A DNA stretch of 64,000 bases from assembly GCA_964270895.1 (NCBI GenBank), contig OZ185453.1; one strand, written 5' to 3'. Each line of letters starts with the position of its first letter. The first letter of the stretch is position 1. The translations under genes were made by a program, and so were the position numbers. This document shows, in pieces, positions 1-60,352 of the stretch. The stretch is from Podarcis filfolensis (lineage: Eukaryota). A model generated the notes under the pieces. The model had not been told where the DNA came from. It worked only from the letters and a program-made list of their open reading frames with translations, and did no database searches.

Positions 1-442
1 GAATTGGAAAACTCAGGAGCTACCCACTGTGGAAGAATGGCAGATGCAACTGATGGACTATATGCAATTAGCCGAGATGACCGGCAGAATTCGAGACCAG
101 GGAGAAGAAAGGATGGAAGAAGACTGGAGGAAATTTAAGATTTATTTACAAAAATATTGTAATTTGGCTGAGTGCTGAATTGGATGCCAGTGCAGACAAT
201 TGTCTACCATTAAATTAGATTTAAGGCTGAATTATATGTCAAACCAAATTAAGATTATTAATTAAGATGAGTTAAATGATAATTTGTTTGAAATTAATTT
301 AATAATGATGTAAGTGTATGCGGGAGGTGTGGGGGAGTCCCATGTAACAATTGAGAGATGTTAAATGGACAATGATAAGTGGTGCTTATCTAATATATGC
401 TTTATTTGAAAACTTCAATAAATATATTATAAAAAAAAAAAA
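1..442 (+). mobile_element. L1 (LINE-1 clade) 3' end: ORF2 C-terminus, 3' UTR, poly(A); 5' part lies outside the window
   Basis: Frame 2..178 reads NWKTQELPTVEEWQMQLMDYMQLAEMTGRIRDQGEERMEEDWRKFKIYLQKYCNLAEC*, the same WK..PT..EW...L..Y..LA..T..IR......W..Y..YL pattern as the L1 fragment at 28691-28939. AATAAA at 417-422, A12 at 431-442. Confidence 0.85.
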
Positions 443-1930
443 GAGAGAACACCTTCTTCTTTAGTGGATAAAAGCAATTAATTTCACGTTTTGGCAGTAT
501 AAGCGATTTTGCTGGAGGATAAGAGTTAACTTTGAGAGTGGAACTGTCACCCCTCCCCCCAGGACCCGGGAGCGATCCGTGAGAGAGCCTGTTGAAGAGA
601 CATAGAAGATTTTGACAGCTGTCAAACTAGCTGTCAAAGCTGGGGGAAAAAGAGAGAACTTTGTTTCTGTTGTCTTTGCTGGTTATATTTGTTACATTCA
701 GGTAATAAATTGTTGAAAACAAAGAGAAAAAGCTAATTTGACTTTTGGATTGGAACTGGAAGGAATACTAAGTAACCAGAACTCCTCTAGAGGGGGTTCT
801 GGGACATTACAAGAATGGCTGCAAGTGGAAAAATACTGACTGAACTGGAGAGGGTTTTCTTTCTCTTGGGAAAGTTACAAGAACAGAGTAATGTTTTGGA
901 TACAAATGTCACAACATTGAATGAAACAGTAAATAAACTTACTGAATCTGGAAGGGACTTGACTCAAGTCTTTGCATCTGAACAAAAAGTTTTTGTAGCT
1001 GAACTAAAAATCTTTGCAGCTGAACAAGAAAAGAAATCTGAGAAATTTGAGAAAGTGGGGAAAGAGATATATGATGATTTGGAGGGAAAGGAAGGAGGAG
1101 CTACAATGCCGCAGATGATTAAGGAGAGCCAGAGGCCTGTTAAGATGGATATAAAGGAAAATAAGAACGGGATCATGAAAATCTGGTTTGAATTGAAGAA
1201 TGAGGAATGGAGAGATCTCCTCATGTGGAGATCTGAAGACCTATGGATTACAAAATTGACTAAAGTGGAAGCTGGAGTTTTTGGGACATTTGGACTTAAA
1301 AGAAGTAAGAAACAAGATTTGGGCTACACTTTTAAATATGGAGGTCTGGCTGGAAGAAACATGGACCTTATTGGGACAGAGCTTCTCCGAGATTTGGTGT
1401 CCAATACAAAGGACTATCAAAAAAACCGGCAGAGAGGAATTGAGAGAGAATTAAGAGCCTCGGACGTGAGGTCACCAGGCTGACAGCAGATAGACTGATG
1501 GACATTTGTTGGGGAACCGGGAAACCGGGAAAGGCGGGGAGTGGGGCTTTGGGAATCCAAAGGGTGTACAATTATATTTTGTTTCTTTGTATTCTGTTTT
1601 GCTACTTATATAAAAATGGGGAATTCGTGAAAGGGAATTGGGGTCGACCTTAGAAAAAGATATTAAGAATAAGTACTGACGTATAAAGACTGAGGTTTAT
1701 GTTAAAATTGGTTAACTAAAATGAATTAAATATAATAAGGTAAAATTTGGGGATAAGAACTTGCTGAACTAAAAATTGAACTGGAATACAAGAAGGGGAG
1801 GTGTGGGGAAGTCAGGGAAATATGTTATTGAAAGTAAGGAATGCAAATTCTATGTGTGTGCGTTTTTTTTTAACTTTTCTTTTGTTTTTTCTCTATTTTT
1901 TGAAAATTCCAATAAATATCTTTTAAAAAA
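443..1930 (+). mobile_element. Putative non-autonomous L1-dependent retroposon (HAL1-like): 5' UTR, single ORF, L1-like 3' UTR, poly(A)
   Basis: Starts right after the L1 poly(A), holds ORF 815-1483, ends with AATAAA (1911-1916) and an A-rich tail. Shares gggaggtgtggggRagtc and tttgaaaa..caataaatat motifs with the upstream L1 3' UTR. No RT or endonuclease sequence. Confidence 0.6.
815..1483 (+). CDS. 222-aa ORF of the HAL1-like element; N-terminal heptad/coiled-coil character, function unknown
   Basis: Longest stop-free ORF outside the GC-rich island. ATG in good context (agaATGG), purine/A-rich strand bias typical of L1 coding strands, heptad-like L/V/F spacing over roughly residues 8-80. 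Confidence 0.5.
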   Translation: MAASGKILTELERVFFLLGKLQEQSNVLDTNVTTLNETVNKLTESGRDLTQVFASEQKVFVAELKIFAAEQEKKSEKFEKVGKEIYDDLEGKEGGATMPQMIKESQRPVKMDIKENKNGIMKIWFELKNEEWRDLLMWRSEDLWITKLTKVEAGVFGTFGLKRSKKQDLGYTFKYGGLAGRNMDLIGTELLRDLVSNTKDYQKNRQRGIERELRASDVRSPG

Positions 1931-1954
1931 ATAATAATACAACATTCTAAAATC

Positions 1955-2305
1955 ATTTCATTAAAAAATTAATTCAAATCAAATTGATGGCAACCATTGG
2001 GCTAGACTTCTGTGAAGATTGCCAAAGGAGGGAGTCAGGCTGTGCCTTGGCCAAAGGCCTGGTGGAACAGCTCTGTCTTGCAGGCCCTACGGAAAGATGT
2101 CAAGTCCCACAGGGCCCTAGTCTCTTGTGACAGAGCGTTCCACCAGATCGGAGCCACAGCCAAAAAAGCCCTGGCTCTGGTTGAGGCCAGCCTAACCTCC
2201 CTGTGGCCTGGGACCTCCAAGATGTTTTTGTTTGAGGACCGTAAGTTCCTCTGTGGGACATACCAGGAGAGGCGGTCCCGTAGGTACGAGGGTCCTAGAA
2301 TGTAA
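1955..2305 (-). mobile_element. L2-clade LINE 3' fragment (approximate ends)
   Basis: ORF 2035-2391(-) contains LGPSYLRDRL...LRSS...RAFLAVAPIWWNAL...FRRACKTELF, the L2 ORF2 C-terminal pattern. Confidence 0.85.
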
Positions 2306-3044
2306 GAGGCCCTTGTGTTTGTTTCATTGCACACATGTATTGTGGTTTTCTGAATATCCATCAAACACTTTAAAGCCATACCAAAATGCAATATGCAAAG
2401 GGCCCAGCACTATCTGCCACATCAGTAACTTCTAAAAACAAAACAAAACAAAACAAAACTACAGAAAAATGAGGAAAGTCAAGCTGGAAAAAACTGGGCC
2501 CCAATCCACAACTAAAAAGTATATTTGCTTTTTGCCTGTTTTCATTGTCATGTCTTTCCACAAAGTATCGCAGGTTGTCTGTTCCCTACCCCTTTAAAGA
2601 ACAAAAGCCCTCATATTTCCTGGGGTGAAAGACAATTAAACCAATTTTACGCTGCAGTATACATATGCCCTTGAATTCCAGGGCTGCTAAAAGCATGTTT
2701 TTGTGAGAAGACATGAAAAATGAACATATAAATAAAGTATAGTTAGGCGGATTTCAAATGTATTTCCTTGCAGATGTGCAGGCTGTGGATGTTTTAGGAA
2801 AATCTGGGGAAAGGGGATTTGCCGGAGTAAATTGAGCAAGGGAGGGAATTTAAAGAACCATTAGACTGTCAGGCAGTCTCTCCAGGGGAAGTGGATAGGA
2901 GATCCATTGCTTGAACCATTTATAGACTGTCTAAGCAAAGCCGCAGAGAATACTATGGGGAAAGCTGTAAATAATAAAATACCTGTCTTCCTAAACAACC
3001 TTTAATACCGAGATCTCAAAGCATCTTGCAGCGTTCAGAAAAAA

Positions 3045-7083: not shown

Positions 7084-8289
7084 CGAAAATTTGTATCCCG
7101 GGCTTTTAAGACTTATCTACCCATGTACTATCTGAAATCAAAATGGCGCATTCATTGCCAGATGCAATTTTTTTTTCCAGCTCTCCCACCCCACTATTAC
7201 AATCTAAAGTAGTCACAACACAGGTGGAAAGTAAAAGGAGGAAGAGCGAGGAGAAGGACCTGAAAATACAATAAGAAGGGCTGAGAGACAAACTTTCAAA
7301 TAATAATAAAAAAGTACTGTACATAAAGAAAGGAGAAGCCATCCAAGGTGCTTTTTGTTGGGGTTTTAAAATAGAAAACGATCGCAGCATCATGTGTTTC
7401 AGGAAGTGCTACAGTATGGAAAATTGACAAATACAGAAAATATTGGGTGGAAGAGAGAGAATTAACATGATTTGAAGTAGCAGAAGAATGTAGAAGGATT
7501 TCTCTACTCTGGAAAATTTTTAGATTTATAGATTTTATATGCAGTTAATTGTTTCTTCTGCACCTCAAAACAACTGTGTTTGATTTTTAAAGCATCAGAC
7601 ATGGTCTAAAAAGCTTTCATGACAGAAGGATACTGTTCATATTTTAAATAGGCCTGGGATGTCAGTCACCTGACAAGTTTAGACAGCCTTTTATTTGACT
7701 GAGTGAAATAACGTCAATTATCCCATGAACTCAAGAACAACCTTGTGTATGTTGGCATTTGCCCTACCAACAATGCATTTTCTGCTATCCACACAGGACA
7801 ACCAAGTTATTAAAAAAGGACACAAATCTGATCTTTAAAATGATATTATTAAGAAACCAGTGGTAATAAATTTTACCACTGCTGCAGACCTGAAAAGTCT
7901 CCATTAGAGTAGGTCCAAATAAAATATCTCAGTGGGTGGGCTCCTGCATAAAAAGTTATGAATTTGAAAGAAAAATACTCTCTGCCCTGATATTTGTGAT
8001 GTTTATATAATCCTCTAGTTGATGATACTTCGATGATCTGATTAAGTGAACTAAAGCCCATGGAAGCTTATTTTAAATAAAGCAATCTATTTTAAATATT
8101 TACCTTGCAAATCTGTTAAGCAGGAAGCATCCCACCTTTTTATAATCACTTCATGGGATCATCTGATAACAATGGCAAGTGTGAAGGTCCCTTGCTCTCT
8201 GGGAGCCAGGGTCACACATATATGTTCATATTAAGTCTGGCTCCAGTGTGCTCCCAACTCTGTTGTTTGAAGCTGAGTACACATCAGGT

Positions 8290-8698
8290 GAGAGCTGGAC
8301 CATAAAGAAAGCTGATAGCCGAAGAAAATTCAAAATCGATGCTTTTGAATTATGGTGCTGGAGGAGACTCTTGAGAGTCCCATGGACTGCAATAAGATCA
8401 AACCTATCCATTCTTAAGGTAATCAGCCCTGAGTGCTCACTGGAAGGACAGATCCTGAAGCTGAGGCTCCAATACTTTGGCCACCTCATGAGAAGAGAAG
8501 ACTCCCTGGAAAAGCCCCTGGTGTTGGGAAAGATGGAGGGCACAAGGAGAAGGGGACGACAGAGGACGAGATGGTTGGACAGTGTTCTCGAAGCTACGAA
8601 CATGAGTTTGACCAAACTGCGGGAGGCAGTGGAAGACAGAAGTGCCTGGTGTGCTCTGGTCCATGGGGTCACGAAGAGTCGGACACGACTAAACAACA
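8290..8698 (+). mobile_element. BovB (RTE clade) LINE, 5'-truncated, with 11-bp TSD
   Basis: Translates ESWTIKKA...IDAFELWCWRRLLRVPWTA...LEGQILKLRLQYFGHLMRREDSLEK...GRQRTRWLD...VHGVTKSRTRL. (CAA)n tail; TSD acacatcaggt at 8279-8289 and 8699-8709. Confidence 0.95.
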
Positions 8699-9129
8699 AC
8701 ACATCAGGTTACCAACCATCAACTGTATCCTGTAGCTGTTTGAGAAATACTCATGTTGTGCTCGCTCTCTCAAACCAGTTTCCATCTGATTTGAAAACGG
8801 AAGTTGCAGTTAAGCCGTTGCGCATGCACAGATGACAGCTTCAGTGAACCGGAGTTTGGCGCAGGGAAACAAATTAGGTATTGTGCTTTAGGTGAAGGCA
8901 TTCCCACCTCCTCTCTGGAGTGAACAGTAACATAAGTAGCTTAGAACATGGGGGGGCCTAGCTATGTTTCAAGATGCTGATGTGCACATAGCCATAGATT
9001 TCGCTCACATTCCACATTTCTTACACACAAGAGTGGCAATCATGGGTTCTGACGCAGTTGAACCATCTCTAGACTTGTACCATCAGCAATGTTACTGCAT
9101 CATGCAACTTCGGACCATATCTAGGATCT

Positions 9130-28432: not shown

Positions 28433-29197
28433 AAGCGATAAAGGAAAACTTAATAAAGATGTTTTACAGATGGTATTTAACACCAACCAAAATATGTAAA
28501 ATGTATAAAACAAAATCAAACCTGTGCTGGAGATGTAACCAAGTAGAGGGGACGCTTATACATATGTGGTGGACATGTGATAAAATCAAAGGCTTCTGGG
28601 ATATGGTATATGAGGAGTTAAAGAAAGTGTTCAAACAAAATTTTAAGAAGAAAACAGAAGCATTTTTATTGGGAATATTAGATACGGATATTGGAAAAGA
28701 AAATATTCCTTTACGCCACAGGAGCCGTGGGAACATTAATTGCCAAAAGCTGGAAAAAAGAATTAATACCGACAATAACAGAATGGCAAGACAAATTATT
28801 TGATTATATTGAACTGGCTAGATTAACAGAGGATATTAGGGGTCAGTCCAAGCAAAAAATTCAAAAAGAATGGGAAAAATACAGAGAATATCTTAAAAAG
28901 CAGTGCCCTCAAATTAATACTTTGACTTGTTTCAATTAACTTCTGCAAAATGAATTATAGGATAAATAAGATGGAAACAGTTTACCAAAAATGAAAACAG
29001 AACCGTGCTGAGGATGAGGGAAGACAATGGAAAGGGGGGGAAAGAACTGAAATATGGGGGGGGGGTGTATTCTGATTTTTTTTGTATTTGTATTTTTTAG
29101 TTTTCAATTTTTGGTTTTTTTTTTCTTTTGATTTGTTTATGTATAAATGTGTGTGTTTATGTTGCAAAATTTAATTTTAATTTTTTTAAAAAAAAAA
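28433..29197 (+). mobile_element. 5'-truncated L1 (ORF2 Cys-rich C-terminus with a frameshift) nested in an L2 tail
   Basis: KMFYRWYLTPTK...CWRCNQVEGTLIHMWWTC...FW then LIAKSWK...PTITEWQDKLFDYIELARLT...EWEKYREYL; stop at 28939; A10 tail. TSD ttccctaaa(c/t)aggg at 28419-28432 and 29198-29211. Confidence 0.9.
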
Positions 29198-31290: not shown

Positions 31291-34279
31291 TGCGGCCTGA
31301 GCAGGAGCAGTCACCATTAAGAAAAAGAGGTTGGAATAGGCCAATATGTGGACTGTCACTATATAAGGTGACTGTTCTTTAAGTTCTCAAAGCTCTTAAC
31401 CTAGCTCAAGGTTGTCATATGAACTAACCAGATGTTTAACTGAGAATCAGTCACAGTCAGTACATCATTTGAAAAATAAGACTTTAGAGCCGTCTTGCCC
31501 CAAAATGGCAACTATACATTCCATTTTGGTGTCTGGAACCTTGGTTTAAGGAGTCATTTGGTGCCTAGCTTATATATCTGAGTTTCTAACACTGCCTCCA
31601 TAAAATTGTCTAATCCATCTTTTAATGCCATCACTGTCTCCTGAGTCAGGGAGTTCCATAGTGTAATAGTAGATATTTTTAAAGATACAAACAAATTGAG
31701 CTAATTCAGACAAGGGAGAGAGGGAAAGCAAGAAATAAAAACTGATATTATGAAAACCAAAGCATTTTTTTTTTGAAGGGGAGAAAATTAAGAGAGGACA
31801 TGCGAGCCATTTTCAAACATCTAAAAAGCTGCCAAAAAAACCAGAAGAACAATTGCCTCCAAGGCCCACTGATGGAAGGACAAGAAGTAACTTGCTCCAA
31901 GTTGCAGTCCCTCAGATTAAAGCTGGGCCACAGGAAGAAAAACTGGTACCTTTAACAACTGGGCAATGGAACAAGCTGCTGAAGAAAGTTGCCCAGTCGT
32001 GTCTGCCTCGGTTTGATGGGAGGAATTTTCGTAAGAGACACGAAGAACATCTACCTAAAGGGACGGTTTTAAGTCAATAGTCAGCCAAATTAGATTAATC
32101 TCAACAATGCATTCCAACTCTTGTAATTTCCCCAATTCTATGCACTAAGATCCAAAGACAGGGGGATTTTGCAGATGGAACAGTACAGCTAAGCCTCTGA
32201 ATGGCAAGCGTGAATTGGCTGTCTTGCACAGAGGAGAGATGAGGAATGGAGCAGGGCATGTAATTGTATATTCTGCATTGCTGCATTTCAGGCTGCAATC
32301 TTACGCACACAGGCCTAGTTCACACAAACAGATTAGGTTGTTAAGCGGTTCCCAGACTGTATAAATTATGCAAATTCAAAGAGTTGAAAATGGGGGGGGG
32401 GAGAGGGAGAGGGAGAGAAAGAGGCATCGCTTCCCACGCTGTACATATAATTTATTTTGTCCCCCCATTACCTTTGGCTCAAACAGACTTTGCAGGGTTC
32501 TGAAACAATACTAAAACCCATTTCCTGCTGCTGAAAGTGGGATATGCCTGTATGCAACACAAGCCATCATCTCTCTTCAAACCACCTTCTACTCTCCAGA
32601 TTAATATTACATCTTGTCTACCTGGTGTTATACCCGACACTTCCTGCAAAAAGCTCAAAGCAGCTGACATATGGTTCCGAGAGTCTTCCACTGACAGGTC
32701 CAGACCCTCTAAGCTTCAGCAGTAGACAAGGAAAACTGTTCAAAGCTGGAGCATAGCAAATCTCTCACGACGAAGAACAATAATGCTCTGGAATAAGTAC
32801 TCTATTTTGCAATCTGCAATCCCAACACTGAGAACTGCCTGTCGAGACCAGACAAAGGATGTAACGGCTTTATTTCTTCCAATTCTCAGCTGAGTGGTGA
32901 GAGAAGGACTCCAACAGCCCCCAAAGTCCTGACCAAAAAAAGCATAGTAGGAAATCCAACTTTACCTTGGACTAACAAGTCCACATCTGTGCGGATTCCA
33001 CTGAATTGGAAAAACCGTAGTGAAAGGAAAATTAAACCATTCCTTGCCCAGAACCCCACATACTTAAGAGAAACGTCCTGGACCAGCCCAGCCAAGGGGA
33101 GCAGATTAGCTGAAACTGAAGAGAGCTTTTGACAAGTTTCATGTTTTGACTCGTGTTTCTAGAGGGGTTGTTCTTTCTGTCAGGCTGGGCAGAACCGCCA
33201 AGGCAAAGAGGGAAGGGGGAATTCCAGCAAGCTGCAGTTGCAAGTAACCCAGTTTCCTATATCCATTTGCTTTCTCTGTGTGTGTGTCAGCAGAAAGGGA
33301 ATTGCAAGGAAAAGCAGTAATGATGGGGGGACGTGGGGGGGGGGGCTGGATAGAGAGAATAGTCTCCTCTTCTCAATACAGGTGCACTTGTGGGTAGCCT
33401 GTATGCAAGCTAGCAAAAACCCAGTGCATGTGCGAATGTCCTTCCTCCCCAAGAGTTTAAGGGCAATTGCATCTTAATTTATTAATTCTTTTTAAAGTGT
33501 GCAGCCTTACATTTCCTACGAAAAGCCAAGGCGAGGTGGCAGACTTGTCGCAAACCCTCCCATTCTCCTGCAGCCTATATGTACAAAGGGCAGTCTGCAA
33601 AGAGCCTTCCTTACCGGTACCTCTAAGCCTCCACTGCTTTCCCCGTTCCTTCCCAAGGCCCTTCTGTAAGGGAAACTAAATCTTCTGCCTTGCACACAAA
33701 GGAATACGCATGTTTAAACTATTCAATATTTATCCAAGAGGATGCAATTTCCACTCCACTTACAGATTTACTGTTGGGGGGCGGCTGGGGGGAGGGAAGC
33801 AAGGCATGGCTCAACAGATGCTCTTCATAAAGCTTTCTAGCTACAGAAATGCACCCGGCAACAATAAGCAAACCCAGCAGAAAAAAGGGGTTGCTGCCTG
33901 TGTGTTGTGTGTGTGAAGCAGCCACTAGCCAGCTGTGCGGCGGTTTGAAATCATGACCTGATTTTTCAATTATGCCTCCACTCCTCCTTTATCCATCTGA
34001 CACAAGAAAGGGGGGAGATCTGCAGGAAGGGAAGGGAAGGGGGGCAGGACACCAGCGGTGGGCCCAAGCCCTAGTGACACACTTCCAGTTTCTCTAAGAC
34101 AGGGAAACCCAGCAGTTTGCCATGCACCTCTGCCCAGGAAAAAAAATTAAGGACCAACCTGGCTCTCACAACGAGGATGCATTGAGTTGTGATGCTGATA
34201 AGATCCGGGAAAGGCTCTCCTTCGGTTGCTTTCCTCTTCTTTCTTTCTTTTTGCAGTTCCAAGACCGATGTAGTTATTT

Positions 34280-35110
34280 GTTTATTTCCCGCGGGATCCC
34301 CGGGAAGGGCTCCATGTCCATTCAGCGCAGCCTTTGCACAGACACTCCTCGAGCAGCAAGCATACCAGCCCGGGCAGCCTGTTGTCTGCGCTCCAGAAGC
34401 AGACAGACCTCGGGGAGAGTTTGCATAGCTCCCCTTCCTCTCTTCCCGGGAAGGTCTTCTCTTCTCCTTCCGCCTCCTTCTCGGGATCTTTCGCCTGGGA
34501 TCTTGCAGCTAAGATCCTTTTTTTTTTTTTTACTAAGAGATCTCCTCCTTGCAAAAGCAGGTCTCTTGTGCGCTTCTTCTTGGGACTTCTCGCGCGCGCG
34601 CTCCCCTTGCAAAAAAAAGGGGGGGCCTCGCGCAGCAGATCGGAGCTGGGTTGGGGGGCGGGTAGGCAAGGGAAAAGGGGGGGCTCGCTTCTCCTCCGCA
34701 GCCTGTCTTGTGGGGGGAGCTGCAGGCTCCGTGTTTGATCGCCGCCTCCTTCCCCCCCCTCCCCAGCGCCCCACTCCAAGCAGACGCCGGCGAGGGCAGT
34801 TGCTGTATTTCCCCCTCGCTTTGCACCGGCTCCGGCGGCCCCAAGCAGAGCAGCCGCGCGTACGGGAGGCGGAGCTGCACGCCGAGGCCCTGCCTTCCCC
34901 CGCTCCCCGCCAGCAGTGGGCTTAGGAGGACTCCAGAGATCATCCAGCCCACCCCCTCCCGCTGGAGAAAAACGCTCCTTGCGCCGAAGCTCGCCAGTGC
35001 TGCATTTCGAAAGAGAGAGAGGTGCTGGGACTTAAACCTGCCCGGCAGAAAAGGACATGCCACCCATCAGAACATGCTGCACTTTAGCCCGGCATCGAAA
35101 CGCTTTTTCT
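34280..35110. promoter_or_regulatory. CpG-island-like region, probable promoter/first exon of an unidentified gene (approximate ends)
   Basis: Sharp local rise in GC and CpG (cgcgcgcgcg, ccgccgg, gcgccgaag) against a CpG-depleted background; no TE hallmarks seen. Confidence 0.65.
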
Positions 35111-35458
35111 CTCACTCTCTCAGCCACAATACATTCCTAGTCTTGCAGTGTAGTCATGGTCTGCCTTACAGAGGCTCTGCAGATAGAAAAAGCTCTGAAC
35201 ATCTGTACACTGGTTAATATTAATAGTTCGGTGGGGAGGCAAAACACCTTCTGCCCATGCCCAGAGACAATCTCTTTAGTGGCAAAGCTTTCAGACATTT
35301 TTTAAAAAACTGTTAGGGGATTCCTCACGTGCCTTTAACCCAAGTTAGCCGTGTCGTATATTGAATGTTGACATATTACCACAACCTCAGTAAAGTTTCC
35401 ATATTTGCAATACTAAAGGAAGAGGAAGATAGCCTTGCAATTTAATTTAAAAGCTGCC

Positions 35459-59689: not shown

Positions 59690-60352
59690 AACAACAACAA
59701 CAACAATTTATTTATACCCCAGCCACTCTGGGCGGCTCCCAACAGAATACGAAAAACATGATAAAAGATCAAACATTAAAAACTTCCCTGAACAGGGCTG
59801 CTTTTATATGTCTTCTAAAAGTCAGAAAGTTGTTTATTTCCTTGACATCTGATGGGAAGGCATTCCACAGGGTGGGTGCCACTACCGAGAAGGCCCTTTG
59901 CCAGGTTCCCTGTAGCTTCACTTCTCACAGTGAGGGAACTGCCAGAAGACCCTCAGAGCTGGATCTCAGTGTCCGGGCTGAGCAATGGGGGTGGAGATGC
60001 TCTTTCAGGTATACTGGGCCGAGGCTGTTTAGGGCTTTAAAGGTCAGCACCAACACTTTGAATTGTGCTCGGAAACGTACTGGGAGCAAATTCAGGTCTT
60101 TCAGGACCAGTTTTATATGGTCTTGGCAGCCATTCCCAGTCACCAATCTAGCTGCCGTATTCTGGATTAGTTGCAGTTTCTGGGTCACCCTCAAAGGTAG
60201 CCCCACGTAAAGTGCATTGCAGTAATCTAAGCGGGAGATAACTAGAGCATGCACCACTCTGGCGAGACAGTCTGCGGGCAGGTAGGGTCTCAGCCTGCAT
60301 ACCAGATGGAGCTAGTAGACAGCTGCCACGGACACAGAATTAACCTGCGCCT
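59690..60352 (-). mobile_element. L2 LINE 3' fragment
   Basis: ORF 59925-60257(-) VHALVISRLDYCNALYVGLP...KLQLIQNTAARLVTG...FKVLVLTFKALN.LGP.YLKE, the L2 RT C-terminal region. Confidence 0.95.

Follow-up and report, generated by a model that had tools for sequence, protein, structure and literature searches.

A Podarcis filfolensis L1-Derived Retroposon Encodes Only a Deleted ORF1 Protein with a Conserved C-Terminal Tail

Results and Discussion

A Retroposon Copy Split by a Young L1

We analyzed a stretch of 64,000 nucleotides from contig OZ185453.1 of the Podarcis filfolensis assembly GCA_964270895.1, referred to below as the window; the L1 and the element described here lie on its plus strand. 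The first 442 positions belong to an L1 that is located mostly upstream (L031:3839-9942), with the end of its ORF2 at 1..178 and its 3'UTR at 179..442, including an AATAAA at 417-422 and an A tail. Both frames of this L1 are intact (ORF1, 352 codons; ORF2, 1,251 codons), and its RT and EN match RVT_1 (E 4e-38) and Exo_endo_phos (E 1e-13). All 39 other scored loci were 100% identical over 442-444 nt, and all 150 scored ORF1 copies of its family, L1-A, were likewise 100% identical; the family is extremely young, and a current burst is suggested.

This L1 was inserted into the 5'UTR of a second retroposon with an 11-bp target-site duplication, the second copy of which occupies 443..453 (element positions ~454-464). 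A preliminary description of the DNA had placed the retroposon at 443..1930 (1.49 kb), with a leader of about 370 bp. There are indeed 372 nt between 443 and the start codon, but 443 is not the 5' end: in comparison with other copies, all 29 that were fetched extend 332-477 nt upstream of the equivalent position. The true leader is ~825 nt long, of which 443..814 is the 3' part, and the full element measures ~1.94 kb. The first 464 nt of the window copy were found outside the window at L031:3374-3838, 6.1 kb further upstream, where they are 96.6% identical to another copy. Since the L1 lies between the two parts, the window copy is split, and a 5'-truncated element is ruled out. We found no target-site duplication belonging to the window copy itself. 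Five further copies of the element (L107, L108, L109, L110 and L111) sit within L1 ORF2 sequences, and the window copy is itself host to an L1.

A single uninterrupted frame of 222 codons, as originally described, runs from 815 to 1483. Its coiled-coil part (815..1036, residues 1-74) contains three 21-nt units in tandem (966-1027). There follow remnants of the first half of an RRM (1169..1297) and of the first part of a CTD (1298..1411), and the frame closes with a conserved stretch of 12 residues, RELRASDVRSPG, and a TGA stop (1445..1483); the final Gly and the stop lie at an ORF1-to-ORF2 deletion junction. The last ~40 codons of an L1 ORF2 persist behind the stop as a decayed, untranslated remnant (1484..1600, end approximate). 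The earlier statement that RT and endonuclease sequence is absent thus holds in that the element has no such frame, but its 3' region does open with the end of ORF2. The remainder is an L1-type 3'UTR (1601..1931) with a conserved box and G-rich tract at 1761-1813, followed by the AATAAA (1911-1916) and A tail (A7, 1925-1931) that had been recognized at the outset. The 3' flank (1932-2379, minus strand) resembles what we take to be the 3' end of an L2/CR1-type LINE.

The Element Forms a Dispersed Family

A search of the source genome with the element returned 3,077 candidates. The 40 that were scored all matched nearly the whole query, and the 39 other than the window copy were 94-98% identical to it. 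A single-copy host gene or retrocopy, against which the preliminary description had weighed its reading, is therefore inapplicable. The full 222-codon ORF is present in 25 of the 29 other copies fetched, a set that includes two pairs of duplicates with common flanks. Full-length copies begin at GGACTTCCGG, measure 1,920-1,961 nt and carry poly(A). The 5' end was located by script in 23 of the 29, and 21 of these 23 are flanked by exact target-site duplications of 9-23 nt; a few 5'-truncated copies are also present. The start of the 5'UTR is CpG-rich; in copy L030, the first 330 nt have a GC content of 0.62 and a CpG o/e of 0.98. No ORF2 frame was found in the 29 + 20 copies examined and none of them was continuous with a full ORF2, the case in which the element would have been a simple deleted L1. 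In contigs of four sequencing runs from three organisms (three runs presumably of RNA, one of unspecified type), 28-29 of 30 element bins were covered at 85% likeness, a measure of presence and not of transcription.

The ORF Is an Internally Deleted L1 ORF1p

Direct searches with the ORF returned little. A word-index protein search gave 332 candidates, none at E 0.01; Pfam gave no above-threshold match, its sole hit being a coiled coil at E 0.079; the best score in the ESM Atlas, 0.82, offered no lead; and a PDB sequence search with the family profile found nothing below E 0.06. Pfam also gave no above-threshold match for 15 L1 ORF1s of the source genome (L159:4993-6024 and 14 others), although the predicted fold of the L159 type matches human ORF1p.

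Profile methods located the parent. When the family profile was aligned to an L1 ORF1 profile with hhalign, the two matched over 211 columns with a probability of 99.6% (E 1.2e-24). Searching 1.84 billion proteins with a profile yielded 17 matches: 14 family-like proteins, two unrelated coiled-coil repeats and one L1 ORF1-like protein. Nine family clusters that were looked up consist of unnamed Logan proteins. The L1 ORF1-like match, P0017, is an uncharacterized Podarcis raffonei protein by its NCBI name, and its use as a lead revealed the parent lineage, L1-C, in the source genome, with up to 89% identity. In the L1-C ORF1 model, residues 4-116 form a coiled coil, 121-210 a four-stranded RRM and 215-275 a CTD, with a disordered tail behind them; the model matches the human ORF1p structure 2YKO (E 1.8e-9). 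A relative of the window element, lineage B (described below), aligns with L1-C copy L159 in six collinear blocks, which run from the 5'UTR through ORF1, entered at an internal Met, across a ~43-codon gap, a 17-codon gap and a ~3.8-kb jump, to the last ~40 codons of ORF2 and the 3'UTR. The first gap lies behind the remnant of parent beta1-alpha1-beta2 and removes RRM beta3-alpha2-beta4 in frame (parent ~165-210); the second cuts the CTD (17 residues, 252-268). The ORF is an L1 ORF1p from the source genome's own L1-C lineage, shortened by in-frame deletions, with the last codons of ORF2 and the 3'UTR attached behind it. It no longer has the full set of coiled coil, RRM and CTD that makes up a functional L1 ORF1p.

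These data decide among the origins that had been considered. The preliminary description had called the ORF divergent or captured, and it is divergent, being a fast-evolving deleted ORF1p, but capture of a host gene is ruled out by the ORF tree and by the hhalign match. Also rejected were an in-frame origin of the C-terminal half from ORF2, as this half maps to ORF1, and descent from the nested L1-A, which matches weakly (E 0.009) and falls as an outgroup in the tree. The AF2 model of the window ORF, built on a shallow alignment, has a mean pLDDT of 51; it is confident for residues 1-44 only and falls below 50 over residues 124-213. The coiled-coil-like N-terminus suspected from the sequence is thus predicted as a helix (pLDDT 77-92 over residues 1-40), no fold is predicted beyond it, and the NLRIR motif is missing, in agreement with the reported absence of an RRNN(L/I)RI-type motif. 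The element is almost certainly an L1-derived retroposon that encodes only ORF1, and the earlier proposal of a HAL1-like family with its own dispersed copies holds, with derivation from an L1 lineage of the same genome.

One Deletion Junction Is Common to Three Lineages

A pattern specific for the deletion junction had 1,350 exact matches and none in a control, and this count is a lower bound because one subfamily differs from the pattern. The same junction is common to three lineages, which we call A (that of the window copy), B and E. Lineage B (e.g. L113) was recovered, together with an L1 family termed L1-B (L108), from the flanks of other element copies; it is ~2.15 kb long, with an ORF of 220-223 aa and a protein ~30% identical to that of lineage A. 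Lineage E has an ORF of 200-208 aa that keeps the second CTD segment and has lost the rest of the RRM. In one A subfamily (L173, L176, L178 and L180), an in-frame duplication of a ~18-residue CTD-derived segment replaces the RRM helix; the first ~25 nt of these copies are closer to the L1-B start than those of other A copies are. L195 belongs to a further, frameshifted lineage that ends in RASDLRSPG and resembles library protein P0001.

In the ORF tree, A, B and E form one clade (support 100/100) that is sister to the L1-C copies L159 and L160 (100/98), and a grouping of the lineage A ORF with L1-B is rejected (p-AU 1e-7). This tree is open to long-branch effects, but the common deletion junctions are independent of it, and as judged from both, the three lineages are a radiation from one founder. 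The ends of lineage A have a different affinity: the first 470 nt cluster with L1-B (support 99/99), and the 3' box clusters with L1-B plus a single copy of L1-C type (97/91, in a short tree of 174 columns). Neither end is compatible with a tree in which all element rows are united in one clade (p-AU 0.006 in each case). The nearest neighbors of L1-B copies are ~98% identical, and those of A copies likewise 97-99%. These affinities suggest that lineage A took both of its ends from L1-B and was driven by it, which would amount to a change of driver. From the ends held in common with L1-B and L1-C, and from the target-site duplications, we infer mobilization in trans by L1 ORF2p. Full-length copies of L1-B, of L1-C and of the element cluster on contig C19, many of them nearly identical; our guess is a segmental duplication or a non-recombining sex chromosome.

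Selection Keeps the Frame Open and Constrains the Body Weakly

Changes private to single copies were neutral, with 62 replacements, 28 silent changes and three stops outside the tail among 27 copies chosen by DNA. Indels common to at least two copies numbered 78 in the UTRs (15 of them multiples of three) versus three in the ORFs, all multiples of three; rows without an intact start or end (2 of 48 in A, 5 of 35 in B) and four split, truncated or internally deleted copies had been dropped before the count. Inner branches carried no stop in the family-wise runs (A with A2, and B), and in lineage E there were none on inner branches versus six on tips (p 0.03). The combined tree of all lineages has one putative inner-branch stop. 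The source lineages thus keep the frame open under selection.

The protein body is weakly constrained, with omega values of 0.4-0.7 on inner branches (A with A2, 0.59-0.69, 57 rows; B, 0.40-0.47, 30 rows); the value for L1 ORF1 is 0.33-0.38 (29 rows). Across all lineages combined it reached 0.91, which parsimony on long stems likely inflates. For the coiled coil, omega is 0.72-0.83 in lineage A (0.73-0.87 at a/d positions) and 0.32-0.38 in lineage B. In two of 15 B copies (L123 and L127), a 1-nt deletion falls at one and the same position ahead of the tail. They may descend from a frameshifted source, although their mutual identity, 98.3%, is hardly above that to other copies.

A body omega below one, scattered ORF1p residues that have been kept, and long-kept ORF1 coding capacity, which is a known pattern of HAL1 according to the accessible text of PMC3627910, are all what would be expected if the element were an ordinary HAL1, whose diverged ORF1p binds RNA in cis and whose tail is an incidental structural or phosphorylation site. 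Two of the four RRM strands and one helix are, however, deleted in all lineages, the remainder is gone from lineage E and one A subfamily, and several lineages have Leu, Asn or Asp in place of the Ser of the Ser-Pro in the tail. Together with the behavior of the tail, which of all parts is under the least constraint in L1 and under the most in the element, this makes the ordinary reading quite improbable.

The Last Twelve Residues Are Conserved as a Peptide

On inner branches, the last 12 codons show 1 replacement versus 11 silent changes in A with A2, 0 versus 2 in B and 3 versus 18 in E, or 4 versus 31 when pooled. In lineage E the preceding 78 codons show 81 versus 52 (p 8e-5 against 3:18 in the tail). 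The same 12 codons in L1, where the stretch is internal, disordered and variable, show 15 versus 11 (p 2e-4 against the pooled count). Silent changes in the tail are not reduced (1.9 per codon versus 0.7-2.0 elsewhere), and this normal silent rate indicates that the constraint acts on the peptide. The combined tree likewise gave 7 replacements and 23 silent changes for these codons (p 5e-6). As its rows had partly been chosen by the motif, lineage E was sampled anew through an anchor placed behind the stop: of 340 anchor matches, the first 70 were examined and yielded 67 elements, 53 of which carry the exact 12-mer. The lineage E counts given above, for the tail, the preceding codons and the stops, come from this sample.

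The pattern extends to distant relatives. In 16 divergent proteins (median identity 32%) that were selected for carrying the tail, A-S-D and P-G do not vary, Arg occupies position -4 in 15, and the tail window scores 0.84 versus 0.64 for the best 12-residue window elsewhere. Among the 14 family-like library proteins, which were found with a profile that contained the tail, 10 end in ASD-[VIL]-x-x-PG and four lack an intact tail. Both the last residue, Gly, and the stop codon stem from the ORF1/ORF2 junction, so that the end of the motif would have been made by the founding deletion itself.

The Ala and Pro codons hardly vary in their third position (GCC and CCA), as might be seen if the junction held an RNA signal of which the peptide pattern is a by-product. 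The pooled excess of silent changes, which includes swaps among Leu TTA, CTA and CTT and among Arg AGA, AGG and CGA, argues against such a signal, and four lineages folded singly showed no common fold, so that this explanation is very improbable. The tail is strongly conserved as a peptide, with room left for some constraint at the RNA level.

A longer consensus for 2A peptides is D-V/I-E-x-NPGP. A skipping peptide of this type, which ends in NPGP (PMC13405545, in the text available to us) with translation continuing, is ruled out, as PG is followed directly by a stop in all lineages and the spacing differs (D-V/I-R-x-P-G).

By its sequence, the tail also resembles a C-degron, and a somewhat unlikely reading of the ORF, though the strongest competitor of the mechanism proposed below, takes it as a self-destruct tag: translation of the frame would be required, be it for the stability of the RNA or for ribosome access to ORF2p, the product would poison ORF1p, and the tail would direct it to the proteasome. 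As described in the available text of PMC7458402, KLHDC10 (in CRL2-KLHDC10) recognizes C-terminal -PG and APPBP2 (in CRL2-APPBP2) recognizes Rx[2-4]Gx[0-3], and the invariant PG end and the R-x-x-G type found in 15 of the 16 proteins resemble both, with the caution that these rows were chosen for the tail. The weak constraint on the ORF body fits as well, and a mixed coiled coil such as that modeled below would bring an RRM-less chain into ORF1p oligomers. On the other hand, Ala-Ser-Asp (-8 to -6) varies no more than PG does, which exceeds what the degron motifs specify, and conservation reaches -12; the best Gly position for APPBP2 is -2 or -3, not -1 (PMC7458402); and the benefit would go to all elements in the cell, so that selection should be weaker than for a cis effect.

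Relation to HAL1 Elements

The HAL1 elements of mammals reportedly go back to work by Bao and Jurka in 2010. As far as the available texts describe them (PMC5753468, PMC3627910, PMC5786205, PMC4161310), they and the lizard element are alike in being non-autonomous L1 derivatives that keep L1 5' and 3' parts, encode one ORF1-derived ORF and no ORF2 enzyme, retain coding capacity for long periods and arose independently. The internal deletion, the single ORF1p-homologous frame without EN or RT, the independent insertions and the selection on source lineages reported above place the element in this type. It differs from HAL1, which is known to us here by description, in that its ORF1p has lost part of the CTD and either half or the whole of the RRM, that constraint is concentrated in a junction-made 12-residue tail, that the host is a lizard and that one lineage appears to have exchanged both ends. 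We found no squamate HAL1 in the literature searched, including the available text of PMC5381506, PMC5203782 and PMC5872511, and no mention of HAL1 or of non-autonomous elements in the available part of PMC5381506; repeat libraries of lizard genomes could carry the family unnamed. On sequence grounds, then, the element is a variant of a type known in mammals, and the squamate version with a gutted ORF1p and a conserved tail appears to be new. It represents a protein-coding L1 parasite outside mammals that has diversified into several lineages, one of which probably took both ends from another L1 family.

HeT-A and Ag-Sponge are also non-autonomous LINEs with an ORF1, and are thought to multimerize with the proteins of an autonomous partner, but they belong to the Jockey and CR1 clades, not to L1 (PMC5786205, as far as its available text goes). 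A closer comparison is the laboratory HAL1 proxy ORF1mneoI, whose ORF1-only Pol II RNA likewise has an L1 5'UTR and uses ORF2p in trans (PMC11260458), as we propose for the lizard element. Unlike the latter, ORF1mneoI required an RNA-binding-competent ORF1p in cis: in the HeLa cell assays described in the available text of that report, an ORF1p dead for RNA binding gave no ORF1-only mobilization (PMC11260458). Two questions are left open there: what makes ORF1-only elements retain their ORF, and whether passage through a ribosome is required for their RNAs to capture ORF2p (PMC11260458). The ORF1-only RNA needed an RNA-binding ORF1p in those cells and this domain is lost here, so any benefit in cis must come in another way.

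A Putative Nascent-Chain Leash

Eukaryotic arrest peptides often stall the ribosome at the stop codon through C-terminal residues in the exit tunnel (PMC5587730, in its available text). By analogy, a peptide-selected tail right before the stop, as found here, is a signature of termination-arrest peptides. The likeness is one of position, not of sequence: gpUL4 uORF2 and arg-2 also carry a short conserved C-terminal peptide directly before the stop, but these are uORFs that repress a downstream gene (PMC5587730), and the stall of the lizard ORF is putative. We tentatively propose a mechanism to which we give somewhat less than an even chance. The element would be transcribed from its L1-derived CpG promoter; its coiled coil would join L1 ORF1p; the last 12 residues would slow termination and so tether the nascent chain, with its coiled coil, to its own RNA; and that RNA would undergo target-primed reverse transcription by the ORF2p of an intact L1 in trans. 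The promoter and reverse transcription steps follow established L1 biology, and copying by the ORF2p of an intact L1 is likely.

For the coiled-coil step, we modeled residues 1-95 with two L1-B ORF1p coiled coils. The predicted complex is a parallel three-helix bundle with a score of 0.68 versus 0.00 for the best of three controls, which were not matched coiled coils; alignments were not used, the runs agree in at least 81% of contacts and the partner pLDDT is at least 76. With the mark applied to this score, 51 of 78 solved pairs pass, as do 2 of 108 mismatched ones (39 of 65 and 2 of 126 for eukaryotes). Such a model indicates compatibility, possibly through kinship, given that the partner is related to the L1 chain and that trimeric coiled coils have been solved, and is not a measure of binding.

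Several observations weigh against the leash. The coiled coil of the window lineage is barely constrained, a poor fit to a required interaction, and the -PG end fits the known C-degron (PMC7458402) equally well. A strict need for the tail is further called into question by the deletion in L123 and L127 and by the four library relatives in which it is not intact. The more specific scenario of an L1 parasite without RNA binding, in which a stalling tail born of the founding deletion would hold a coiled-coil hook on the ribosome until an ORF1p/ORF2p particle is caught, is conceivable but doubtful.

Alternatively, the tail would be a docking motif and the protein, released or nascent, a two-ended adaptor whose coiled coil binds ORF1p and whose free C-terminus binds ORF2p or a host factor, without any stall. 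A short, disordered, invariant segment at a free C-terminus would suit this role, as would the multimerization with partner proteins proposed for ORF1-only elements (PMC5786205, available text). A released protein without an intact RRM, however, has no evident way to favor its own RNA, and the tail stayed fixed while lineage A apparently swapped both ends for those of another L1 family; we consider docking unlikely.

If it operates, the leash would give access to the L1 machinery in a third way, next to cis-preference and ribosome binding of the Alu type. Whichever reading applies, the family is a natural deletion and mutation scan in which the RNA-binding domain has proved dispensable and the body drifts, while the open frame and the 12 terminal residues are firmly held. 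The tail is thereby singled out as a short, easily mutated sequence that can be tested, and the family makes the ribosome-passage question for ORF1-only RNAs (PMC11260458, available text) accessible to experiment. As a natural driver for such assays, the same genome has L1-A, which is intact and very young.

Other Features of the Window

Further LINE fragments are an apparent RTE/Bov-B-like RT end at 8185-8832, an old L1 ORF2 end of 45-53% identity at 28435-28906 and an apparent L2/CR1-like piece at 59692-60207. At ~34100-35200, several long open frames overlap, with a high content of Gly, Ala, Arg and Pro such as CpG islands or first exons have.
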